Source: Candidatus Moraniibacteriota bacterium
GTDB lineage: Bacteria > Patescibacteriota > Minisyncoccia > Moranbacterales > GCA-2747515
Reading direction: 5' to 3'
Assembly (NCBI GenBank): GCA_018401135.1
Contig: JAGYLL010000001.1
Coordinates: 1-59,181, forward strand
Length of the DNA stretch: 59,181 bases
Position numbers and translations under genes: made by a program. How positions within the stretch are numbered: the first letter of the stretch is position 1; each line of letters opens with the position of its first letter. Below the pieces are notes generated by a model. The model searched no databases. It was not told the DNA's origin and saw nothing but the letters and a program-made list of their open reading frames with translations. Shown piece after piece: positions 12,284 to 15,073 of this stretch.

Positions 12284-12321
12284 ATGAAAGAAGAATATAT
12301 TTTAGAACAACATATCGAAAA
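12284..12321 (+). repeat. orphan duplicate of the ligA 5' end
   Basis: 36/38 identical to 12953-12990 (ligA codons 1-13); opens a 30-codon dead-end ORF. Confidence 0.85.
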
Positions 12322-12373
12322 TTTCAAAGGGGTGCTATATAAAAAAGTTTCTGATAAAAGTATAACTAGAGAA

Positions 12374-12412
12374 TAAAAAAAACGAACCCCGAAACGCAGA
12401 GTGCGCTCGGGG
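12374..12412 (-). terminator. Rho-independent terminator of the GC-enriched minus-strand ORF
   Basis: minus strand: ccccga...tcgggg stem followed by tttttttt. Confidence 0.65.
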
Positions 12413-12443
12413 CAGGATGTCCGCATTATACGGACAAAAGCGA

Positions 12444-12797
12444 TCAGGCGGGTCCGTCGTAGTCACCGGCATCGACGCCGTGATCAGAGGATGAATTGTT
12501 TGTCGTCTTTTGTTCCACAGGCTCATCTTCCGTAGGCGGGGGATTGTCCAGCTCAGGAAAGATCGCTGATATGGTTTTGAATATAAGGAGACGACGAGTT
12601 TCGGTTTCGGGGTTTTGTGCTGGGATCAATTCGGAGGTTTCTTTAAAAACCTTTTTATTGACAGTCATTTCACCGCTCCCAAAGACCACGATGGGATGTC
12701 CCTCAATAGTGACATCTATGACGCGTCCCGTCGGCATAGCGCTGTGCATTCCAAGGAATGTCACGTAATCACCCTTTGCGAACGTAATTTTCGCCAT
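12444..12797 (-). CDS. hypothetical protein, GC-enriched cassette gene
   Basis: 117-aa ORF MAKITFAKGDYVTFLG...; 37/60 G+C at 12421-12480; has its own terminator and a TTGACA-17-TTTACT box (12916-12888, minus strand). Confidence 0.55.
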   Translation of the reverse strand: MAKITFAKGDYVTFLGMHSAMPTGRVIDVTIEGHPIVVFGSGEMTVNKKVFKETSELIPAQNPETETRRLLIFKTISAIFPELDNPPPTEDEPVEQKTTNNSSSDHGVDAGDYDGPA

Positions 12798-12952
12798 GTT
12801 TTTTATCCGCCGTTTCTTAGACTGGCACGGATCTCTGTTTTTTGAAAGGATTTTCGTTGGTCGCCTATACTTCTTGTGCGACGTTTCAGTAAACTATATT
12901 ATGCAGTATATGTCAAGTCGACGAAGCGCTTTGTTCGCGATATACTTCTTGT

Positions 12953-15073
12953 ATGAAAGAAGAACATATTTTAGAACAACGTATCGAAAAACTTCGCGCC
13001 GAAATTGATGATTTGCGGTATCGTTATCACGTACTCAATGATCCTTCGGTTACCGATGAAGTGTATAGCTCTCTTATGGATGAGCTTCGTCTTTTGGAAG
13101 AACGCTATCCTCAATACGATTCTCCCACAAGTCCAACAAAACGGGTTGGAGGTGTTCCGATAGAAGCCTTCCAGAAAGTAGAACACAAAGTACGGCAATG
13201 GTCATTTGGCGATGTGTTTTCTTTGGACGAACTCAAAAAATGGGACGAACGTGTGAAAAAAATGTGGGACAAAACACAAGAAAAACAAAACAACAAAGAT
13301 TTGTCTCTTTCGTATTGTACAGAACTCAAAATAGATGGACTAAAAATTATTCTCGAGTACGAAAAGGGAAAATTGAAACAAGCTTCTACTCGAGGAGATG
13401 GAAAAGTAGGGGAGGATGTGACAGAAAATGTTAAAACGATTCAGTCTATCCCGTATGTACTTTCCTCGCCTCTTTCATGTATTGTGGTGGGAGAAATCTG
13501 GATGGCCAAGGGTGAACTCGCTCGAATCAATAGGGAACGAGAAGAGAAAGAAGAGATGCCTTTTGCTAACACGCGAAATGCGGCCGCCGGGTCTATTCGA
13601 CAATTGGATCCCAAAATAGCATCGAGCCGAAAACTTGATTCTTTTATATACGATATAGATTGGATAGAAGATGACGGAGAAGATACTATCTCTCTTCCTG
13701 AAACGCAAACAGAGGAACTTGCACTTCTTGAGACATTGGGTTTCAAGGTGAACCCTCATCGCAAACACTGCAAAACGATAGAGGAAATCGAAGTGTTCTA
13801 TGAAGAAATGAAAGACAAAAAAACACAACAAATCTATGATGTCGATGGACTTGTGATAAAAGTAGAGCAAAAAATAATACAAGATGCTTTGGGGTATACG
13901 GGGAAATCTCCTCGATGGGGGATTGCCTATAAATTTCCTGCTGAGAAAACGACGACGGTAGTAGAAGATATACAGGTGCAAGTAGGGAGAACAGGCGTAC
14001 TTACTCCTGTGGCTCATTTGCGACCGGTGCTTGTAGCGGGATCGGTTGTTTCTCGGGCGACACTTCACAATGAAGATGAAATACGAAGACTTGACGTTCG
14101 CAGAGGAGATACCGTGGTTATACAAAAAGCGGGGGATGTTATTCCTGATATTGTGGAGGTTCTCTCATCTTTGCGAACAGGCAAAGAAATGGTTTTTACG
14201 ATGCCCGATTTTTGCCCTGTGTGTAAAAGTCCTGTTTATAAAAAAACGAGTGATAAAGGAAACATTTCGCATTATTGTTCCAATACGCAATGCTTTGCTA
14301 TAGAGATGGAAAACATTATTCATTTTGCCAGTAGAAAAGGTTTTGATATAGAAGGATTGGGAATAAAAATTATAGAGCAACTTTTACAAGAAGGACTTAT
14401 TACTACCGTGAGTGATATTTTTGAACTCAAAGAAGGAGATCTCGAGCCATTGGAACGATTCGCCGAAAAATCAGCCAAAAATCTCATAGAGGCCATAGAA
14501 AAAAGTAAACATATTTCTTTGGAAAAATTTCTTTTTGCTCTCGGTATTCGCTATGTAGGAGAAGAAAATGCTCTTCTTCTTGCTCGATATATCCGAAAAC
14601 ATTTCCAAGAAAAATATACAGATACTTCCATACACACACCACAAGAAGTGTGGGAAATCGCTTCTTCTCTTTCTCAAGAAGAATGGGAGAGGATCGAAGG
14701 ATTTGGTCCGAAGGTGACGGGCTCTCTTCTTTGGTGGTTTGGACAAGAAGAAAAGAAAAAGATACTCGCCACGATGACCGAACTTGGCATTCGATTCGTC
14801 CAGACATCATCACAAGCCAAACAAAATAATACACCACTCGAGGGAAAAACATTTGTTCTCACAGGAGAGTTAGAACATTTTTCGAGAGAAGAGATGAAAG
14901 AAAAAATACGTCTCTACGGAGGGAAAATAACATCGAGCGTGAGCAAAAGCACCCATTTCGTTTTGTGTGGGAGTAATCCTGGATCTAAATACGAAAAAGC
15001 ACTCCAGCTCAACGTTCCCATACTCTCTGAAAATGATTTCTTGAAAATGATAGGAGAGGAAAGGGGGAAGTAA
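12953..15073 (+). CDS. ligA: NAD-dependent DNA ligase
   Basis: 706 aa; adenylation motif ELKIDGLKI, Cys4 zinc finger CPVC...C..TQC, C-terminal BRCT region. Confidence 0.95.

Follow-up and report, generated by a model that had tools for sequence, protein, structure and literature searches.

The 59,181-nucleotide (nt) stretch of DNA analysed here (hereafter the window; contig JAGYLL010000001.1 of assembly GCA_018401135.1, Candidatus Moraniibacteriota bacterium) raises the question of how an essential gene can acquire a foreign-looking neighbour at its very 5' end, together with a second copy of its own start, and remain unbroken. The gene is ligA, which encodes the NAD-dependent DNA ligase, and the slot upstream of it, bounded on the left by a GT4-family glycosyltransferase gene (GT4), holds a small gene on the opposite strand flanked by direct repeats of the ligA start. 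An initial annotation, made from the letters of the window, had described this arrangement as a duplicative insertion of a self-contained gene cassette with regeneration of the gene start. We compared the locus across six close Moranbacteria assemblies that carry the cassette (the window, L001, L004, L005, L007 and L009) and four sequences in which the site is empty (L014, L015, L016 and L017). We favour, with a probability of roughly 0.55, one ancient duplicative recombination of the Campbell type at the 5' end of ligA, later reshuffled by homologous recombination.

The insert between GT4 and ligA measures approximately 0.63-0.67 kilobases (kb), contains one small gene and carries direct repeats of the ligA 5' end at both edges (Table 1). 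When the window was compared with itself using BLAST, positions 12283-12321 and 12952-12990 were recovered as a repeat pair with 2 mismatches (E = 9.5e-12), and no third copy of the 39-nt repeat was found in the 59-kb window. The left copy, here called the orphan, has its ATG 16 nt past the stop codon of GT4, at 12284, and runs into the 30-codon dead end that had been reported for it. Read by eye in the other genomes, this frame extends over 19 codons in L004 and 14 in L009 and has no start codon in L005; such variation in length indicates that the orphan is no peptide gene. To the right of the left repeat follow, in this order, a terminator, an opposite-strand open reading frame (ORF) of 117 amino acids (aa) with raised G+C content, and divergent promoters. 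The duplicated start, its place just past GT4, the G+C-rich ORF and the promoter and terminator serving it all proved to be as initially annotated. We also noted an 18-nt inverted repeat (12306-12323 / 12786-12803, 83% complementary) between the 3' part of the orphan and the start-codon region of the small gene; it is not kept in L005 and is probably due to chance.

The small gene is confined to the six cassette-bearing assemblies, in one slot and one orientation, and the gene order around every homologue is Wzy(-), GT4(+), small ORF(-), ligA(+). The Wzy-GT4-...-ligA order is retained in all relatives. The ligA genes of the cassette-bearing relatives share 82-94% nucleotide identity with that of the window. 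In the window, L004, L005 and L009 the duplication of the ligA start is highly significant (0/2000 shuffles); it survives as a decayed remnant in L001 (23/2000 shuffles) and is not significant in L007. The orphan ATG has become ATA in L005. The repeat reaches position +45 in L005 and L004 (...GAAAAACTTC), and the leader of the window orphan, TATCTCT, equals the ligA leader of L005, from which we deduce that the duplicated segment spanned approximately -9 to +45 relative to the ATG. The left junction (...CTTC joined to AAAGG, or CTTTTAAATCG) was found in both subclades that share the cassette. As GT4 has diverged by up to 26% between these two subclades, the event must be ancient, and a recent insertion in the window genome does not fit.

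The small gene is served by signals of its own, in keeping with its earlier description as a self-contained cassette. Both hexamers of its promoter, TTGACA (12916-12911) and TTTACT (12893-12888) on the minus strand, are kept in 6/6 cassette-bearing genomes, with a spacer that varies, and its equally conserved terminator consists of a hairpin (12387-12412) and a minus-strand T8, seen as an A-run at 12375-12382 on the plus strand. The promoter that drives ligA has a different history. In the outgroups L011 and L012 it reads T(C/G)GACG-17-TA(T/C)ACT, followed by 6-8 nt and the ligA ATG, essentially as in the window, and a third outgroup, L013, keeps the layout in part, with TCGCGA as its -35 element. 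The layout spans Moranbacteria with 60-66% ligA identity and, because it is kept in outgroups that are free of the cassette, it represents the native ligA promoter rather than cargo of the insert. The right-hand copy of the ligA start thus belongs to a native promoter-start unit and was not brought in with the insert, which qualifies the original proposal. Judging from the spacing between promoter and ATG, the ligA mRNA is probably leaderless; a missing Shine-Dalgarno sequence was ruled out as a peculiarity of ligA, as most genes of the window also lack one.

The 12 nt directly preceding the ligA ATG, TATACTTCTTGT, occur exactly at both 12866 and 12941, as had been noticed before. Allowing at most one mismatch, this 12-mer is found 3 times in the whole window compared with 0.37 expected, and 0/100 shuffles reached 3. 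The upstream copy is matched at 11/12 positions in L004 and at 12/12 in L009; in L005, L001 and L007 it has degenerated. A promoter-like TTGAAA-18-TATACT is present at 12842-12871.

The initial annotation had pointed to related genomes as the place to look for an empty GT4-ligA site, and such a site was found. A ligA search returned a clade at 88-95% aa identity, with the next relatives at 66% or less, and one search of genome contigs with ligA retrieved a single distant, truncated locus. In contigs L014, L015, L016 and L017, the GT4 stop is followed after 10 nt by the ligA ATG; in the first three, the GT4 3' end, TAA and AGTATTTTTT directly precede this ATG. All four share the junction TAAAGTATTTTTTATG and represent two lineages that are 8% apart, with L017 diverging from L016 by 8% around an identical junction. 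L016 also carries a complete GT4 and part of Wzy, and its empty-site locus is without the native ligA promoter. One metagenome-assembled genome (MAG), GCA_010014565.1, contains both L017, with an empty site, and L001, with the cassette. Runs SRR8327730 and SRR8327731, which probably underlie this MAG, gave identical copies of the small gene of L001. The two alleles therefore co-occur and, with the junction present in two lineages, the empty allele is no one-off. The N-terminus of the ligase encoded at empty sites reads M(K/R)E(A/D)QKE(Q/H)KERIEKLR, while cassette-linked ligA begins M(K/Q)EE(H/Y/N). Two gene calls among these sequences are irregular: GT4 of L009 is split into two ORFs of 209 and 208 aa (6565-7801), and ligA of L016 (2387-4372) is truncated to 661 aa, with stops in the C-terminal BRCT region. 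Both are possible frameshifts or sequencing errors.

In at least one sample, cassette-bearing and cassette-free strains occur together, which counts in favour of the idea that the duplicate is an assembly artefact, i.e., a mis-join or a collapse of strain variants. So does the shared break of two independent contigs, L014 and L015, which come from separate samples and different assemblers: each stops within the 3' end of GT4 at the identical base, 84 nt ahead of the ligA ATG, which suggests a strain-level branch in the assembly graphs. We give this idea next to no credence. The same duplicated start recurs in independent assemblies from other samples (L004, L005/L006, L009), the structure carries lineage-specific substitutions in at least four other samples processed with different pipelines, and the repeat, at 39-45 nt, is shorter than typical final k-mers (e.g., those of the k141 contig L015).

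Neighbor-joining trees of GT4 and of ligA place the empty-site strains next to L007, nested among the cassette-bearing ones, and L001 branches further out. Divergence between L016 and L007 is approximately 1% in Wzy and in the first 700 nt of GT4 and 5-15% from the 3' half of GT4 through nt 450 of ligA, a jump that marks a patch of recombination spanning the junction. The empty alleles do not form a single clade on the GT4 side; within the first 617 nt of ligA they do so weakly (70% bootstrap). This conflict, together with the mosaic patch, indicates that the presence and absence alleles are old and that homologous recombination has carried them from one background to another. Nesting in the cassette-bearing clade and the missing native promoter argue that the empty site may have arisen secondarily, by deletion, and not be ancestral. 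Such a loss could have come about, for example, if a drifted orphan and the true start had served as the end points of a deletion, which would explain the odd N-terminus at empty sites. Other signals favour an ancestral or orphan-derived start: the empty-site KERIEKLR is shared with the outgroups, and the orphan of L004 matches the empty-site start at 37/46 positions versus 34/46 for the ligA start of its own genome.

Outside the clade, the slot is filled differently. L011 (65% ligA identity) keeps the Wzy-GT4-...-ligA synteny, and its slot (3982-4902) is occupied by a different, co-directional 306-aa gene of 53% G+C without a Pfam match; L012 has other G+C-rich genes upstream of ligA (151-2348). 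These outgroup slot genes are of high G+C content (53-55% versus 38-42%), the two that were scanned have no Pfam family, and their products carry apparent signal peptides when read by eye. Neither L011 nor L012 has a duplicated ligA start. A 114-aa divergent ORF upstream of ligA in L013 was considered as a homologue of the small protein and ruled out (hhalign probability 0.2%). It seems that foreign-looking genes have repeatedly landed upstream of ligA.

Such a landing site suggests an insertion hot spot, and the insert is itself enriched in G+C; we considered whether it is what remains of a site-specific integrative element. Such an element would have brought an integrase, used an attB overlapping the ligA 5' end and supplied a replacement start; the repeats would be attL and attR, and everything else save the small gene would have been deleted. 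Phage 21 and e14 target the 3' end of icd and genomic islands target tRNA genes, in each case providing a replacement gene end, and with elements of this kind gene-end duplications of 40-55 nt are typical as attL/attR identity blocks. The locus resembles them in that 39-45 nt of the ligA start are repeated at either edge of the insert and the target gene is intact. It differs in that the 5' end and promoter are involved instead of the 3' end and in that the insert, of approximately 0.63-0.67 kb, holds a single gene. In all six genomes, no transposase, integrase or other recombinase domain was detected by Pfam in the insert or its neighbours, nor by PHROGs or NCBIfam in the insert ORF. A repeat search found no terminal inverted repeats at 12322 or 12952, only internal arms. 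We found no short target duplication (2-15 bp) and no multiple copies; the duplication is 39-55 nt, and the window has one copy of the insert. As for integron traits, there is no attC-like site in the insert and no integrase domain among the scanned neighbours, and the ORF has its own promoter and terminator. In addition, the small protein is without phage, plasmid or viral relatives, all its homologues sit in the same slot, the outgroup slot genes came without a duplicated ligA start, and the one transposase gene nearby (rve family, 15171-16256) is window-specific and lies outside the repeats. An origin from a site-specific element is thus unlikely.

A Campbell-type recombination accounts for the repeats in another way. 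We propose that a circle carrying a short ligA 5' segment would have entered the chromosome by a single crossover, leaving target-end repeats on both sides of the insert. The right copy would have stayed joined to the native ligA promoter as the working gene start, and the left copy would be a dead remnant, its frame not conserved and decayed in one subclade. The insert has since passed down vertically, with homologous exchange between strains in GT4, ligA and the cassette, and in some strains its removal would have produced the GT4-10 nt-ligA arrangement. In E. coli, single crossover of a circle with a lacZ end gave 109-950-bp duplications of that end (PMC3240628), and natural competence has been demonstrated for Saccharibacteria of the Candidate Phyla Radiation (CPR) (PMC10187176, preprint of PMC10633639). 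With copies of the target end bracketing the insert, this precedent and natural competence within the CPR lead us to favour Campbell-type recombination. As in the lacZ system, the target end is directly duplicated around the insert with one copy functional, and deletion between the repeats restores a simple junction. L014-L017 are natural variants without the insert and with one copy of the segment. Unlike that system, the event here is natural rather than engineered and ancient, since reshuffled, the repeat is approximately 45-55 nt rather than 109-950 bp, and no vector backbone or circular form was seen. The locus is also similar to the products of homology-facilitated illegitimate recombination and to the orphan-gene arrays produced by sequential displacement of modules, in which foreign DNA comes in beside a conserved anchor gene of a naturally competent lineage, with truncated remnants (PMC3240628; PMC5361080). 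Classical recombination of that kind replaces or deletes recipient DNA, and a duplication overlapping the anchor, as found here, would not be expected from simple linear replacement. Of the original proposal of a duplicative insertion with a regenerated start, the core stood, given the empty sites and the duplicate shared among relatives; that the empty site is ancestral became uncertain, as it may be a deletion.

In another scenario, the small gene is an older neighbour of ligA and the orphan arose later, in the spacer next to GT4, by local duplication, template switch or ectopic gene conversion, with the empty sites resulting from deletion. We consider this doubtful, though worth keeping in mind. 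It is consistent with the native character of the right-hand promoter-start unit, with an orphan that only the window's subclade has kept well and that falls short of significance in L007, with the partial promoter copy at 12842-12877, which demonstrates that local duplications occur here, and with empty-site strains that nest in the cassette-bearing clade and have no native promoter. It is at odds with the weakly significant remnant in L001, which lies exactly at the GT4 stop and shares the same downstream junction motif, which argues for a duplicate older than the split of the subclades. Moreover, the orphan sits where ligA starts at empty sites (10-16 nt past the GT4 stop), as insertion predicts and random local duplication does not.

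The state of the orphan calls for an explanation. Non-coding DNA beside it is approximately 61% identical between subclades, while the orphan in the window, L005 and L009 remains 90-95% identical to the ligA start (binomial p 0.006-0.09 against equal neutral decay). Gene conversion from the true start, which would have refreshed the left repeat in the window's subclade, or a later re-duplication offers the simplest explanation. Selection on the orphan is a possible cause that nothing else supports. It would follow if the orphan were a functional element, either a decoy or antisense partner of the ligA 5' end, made by read-through of the terminator, or a shared binding site. Better preservation than the neutral expectation in the window's subclade and the position of the orphan, just past the small-gene terminator and on the strand antisense to the ligA start, would fit such a role. 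Conversely, L001 and L007 have a decayed orphan, in L004 its centre is rewritten and in L005 its ATG is lost; it shows no greater identity within the window's subclade than the remainder of the spacer, and the terminator is strong. Rfam returned no family match at E up to 1 in 12200-13050, and the adjacent 5' untranslated region (UTR) of the small gene has two weak hairpins without compensatory changes. A functional orphan is therefore very improbable, and an RNA element in the cassette or in this 5' UTR was ruled out for lack of an Rfam match and of covariation.

Several points weigh against the Campbell-type reading that we prefer. The mechanism is deduced from topology alone, with no circular form, donor context or recombinase seen. 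A simple Campbell event should leave the recipient ligA promoter at the left copy, which is preceded only by a weak promoter-like remnant, TCCACG-13-GAATAT. Equal neutral decay is unlikely to have kept the orphan so well, so an extra assumption is needed, and the third partial promoter copy at 12842-12877 shows a site history beyond one event. Finally, the signals for the polarity of the empty site conflict, and the sample is small, comprising six cassette-bearing and four empty-site sequences.

The small gene itself stands out by composition. Its G+C content is 49%, with 51% at third codon positions (GC3); GT4 and ligA have 40% (GC3 32-33%) and the window averages 37.6%. The small gene falls in the top 3.8% of 354-nt windows, and 37/60 positions in 12421-12480 are G or C. 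Pairwise ratios of nonsynonymous to synonymous substitution rates (dN/dS) of 0.23-0.74 and indels that are in-frame indicate that the gene is real and under relaxed purifying selection. Further copies had been suggested as something to look for, and none was found outside the slot: among 5.8 billion proteins, homologues form only 5 other clusters (50-75% identity, one annotated Candidatus Moranbacteria), all of them in this slot. An exhaustive profile hidden Markov model (HMM) search of 1.84 billion representatives gave one representative cluster, its own family, and a marginal match to a Prok_Ub motif. Two scans of JGI metagenomes, one by small-protein pattern and one by ligA DNA pattern, gave no matches. 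The protein has no match in Pfam, PHROGs or NCBIfam, no PADLOC family at E up to 1, no Pfam defence or toxin-antitoxin model and no relative in IMG/VR, INPHARED or PLSDB, and a phage, plasmid or viral origin was ruled out on the latter grounds.

AlphaFold2 modelled the protein (mean predicted local distance difference test score 72) as a five-strand SH3-like barrel with one helix and a disordered acidic tail, for which a Foldseek search of the PDB retrieved weak, generic SH3/Tudor/KOW barrels at E 0.08 or worse. Residues 73-93 (21 residues) resemble the repeated helix-loop of a tandem Prok_Ub protein, P0127 (E 4e-4). The likeness to Prok_Ub (PF14454) lies in a helix motif, ...I(F/Y)PEL.N..; the small protein is predicted to fold into an SH3-like barrel with a helix instead of a beta-grasp, and it has no Pfam match.

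The body of the small gene is strikingly divergent between genomes that are otherwise close. Between the window and L009, identity is 97-99% in GT4 and in the promoter spacer and 94% in ligA, whereas inside 12411-12781 the two differ at 13-34 positions per 60 nt, compared with 0-5 in the immediate flanks. The edges of this patch are sharp; differences also reach 15 per 60 nt across the orphan stretch at 12291. The synonymous substitution rate (dS) between the two is 1.6 for the small gene and 0.23 for ligA, and L004 shows the same pattern (0.93, with flanks at 0.26-0.28). The small gene comes in at least four deep allelic lineages, which are shuffled between flanks that are nearly identical. 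Conserved throughout are the first ~16 codons, an ISAI(F/Y)P(E/D)LDNP motif, the promoter and the terminator. Hyperdivergent alleles within conserved flanks suggest that the protein is under diversifying or balancing pressure.

It is tempting to speculate that the cassette cycles without a recombinase. Recombination between the repeats would release a 0.67-kb circle and leave an empty allele in which the drifted orphan serves as the ligase N-terminus; the circle, or linear DNA acquired by competence, would re-enter at the ligA 5' end, and gene conversion would keep the repeats alike. The cargo would then be a balanced, hypervariable protein acting on ligA, in DNA-end biology or in a host/phage conflict. 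We regard this as quite unlikely.

Some features of the wider neighbourhood are recorded here. Downstream of ligA by 98 nt, the window carries a plus-strand gene for a 361-aa rve-family (integrase core) transposase with helix-turn-helix domains (15171-16256). Relatives have a 198-aa gene of unassigned function in its place, and the insertion sequence is therefore specific to the window genome. In L015, the region downstream of ligA (4411-6920) holds a PDDEXK/RNase_H_2-like gene of 497 aa and a Bro-N domain gene, both possibly phage-derived. Just upstream of the M48 peptidase/Wzy/GT4 block, the window has a larger G+C-rich island (5200-7650 and 8000-8500; 50-59% versus 37.6% overall), in which Rfam found no family match. 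The island holds homologues of a LysM protein and a 243-aa protein of the relatives; both frames have in-frame stops or shifts in the window, which suggests pseudogenes or assembly errors.

Table 1. Features of the GT4-ligA slot, in window coordinates
Feature	Position	Strand	Remarks
GT4-family glycosyltransferase gene, left flank	11032-12267	+	Pfam Glycos_transf_1 (7.7e-33) and Glyco_transf_4
Left direct repeat, orphan copy of the ligA start	12283-12321	+	39 nt, 95% identity to 12952-12990
Dead-end ORF of 30 codons opened by the orphan ATG	12284-12376	+	From the ORF listing; coding sequence not conserved
Intrinsic terminator of the small gene, hairpin and T8	12375-12412	-	Kept in all six cassette-bearing genomes (alignment)
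Hyperdivergent allelic patch over the small-gene body	12411-12781		From window versus L009 differences
Small gene, 117 aa, lineage-restricted	12444-12797	-	SH3-like beta-barrel, one helix and disordered acidic tail (predicted)
Upstream copy of the 12-mer TATACTTCTTGT	12866-12877	+	Within a ~25-nt partial copy of the ligA promoter spacer and -10
Small-gene promoter, TTGACA-17-TTTACT	12888-12916	-	Back-to-back with the ligA promoter
Native ligA promoter, TCGACG-17-TATACT, then 6 nt to ATG	12918-12952	+	Layout also in cassette-free outgroups
Right direct repeat, functional ligA start	12952-12990	+	Frame runs on into RIEKLR..., conserved in all ligA relatives
ligA, NAD-dependent DNA ligase gene, right flank	12953-15073	+	Pfam DNA_ligase_aden (2.3e-81), with OB, HhH and BRCT domains

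Altogether, the locus illustrates, at good resolution, processes that are already known, in a phylum that has received little study, and no new mechanism is required to account for it. It provides a natural case, from uncultured CPR bacteria, of an accessory gene lodged at the 5' end of an essential gene that was left unbroken. The insert persists as a presence/absence and allelic polymorphism that is shuffled by homologous recombination, and its loss rewires the transcription of ligA, which is read from its own conserved promoter when the cassette is present and starts 10 nt after GT4 when it is not. The locus also draws attention to a fast-evolving, lineage-restricted small protein and to a slot that is filled differently across the lineages of Moranbacteria.

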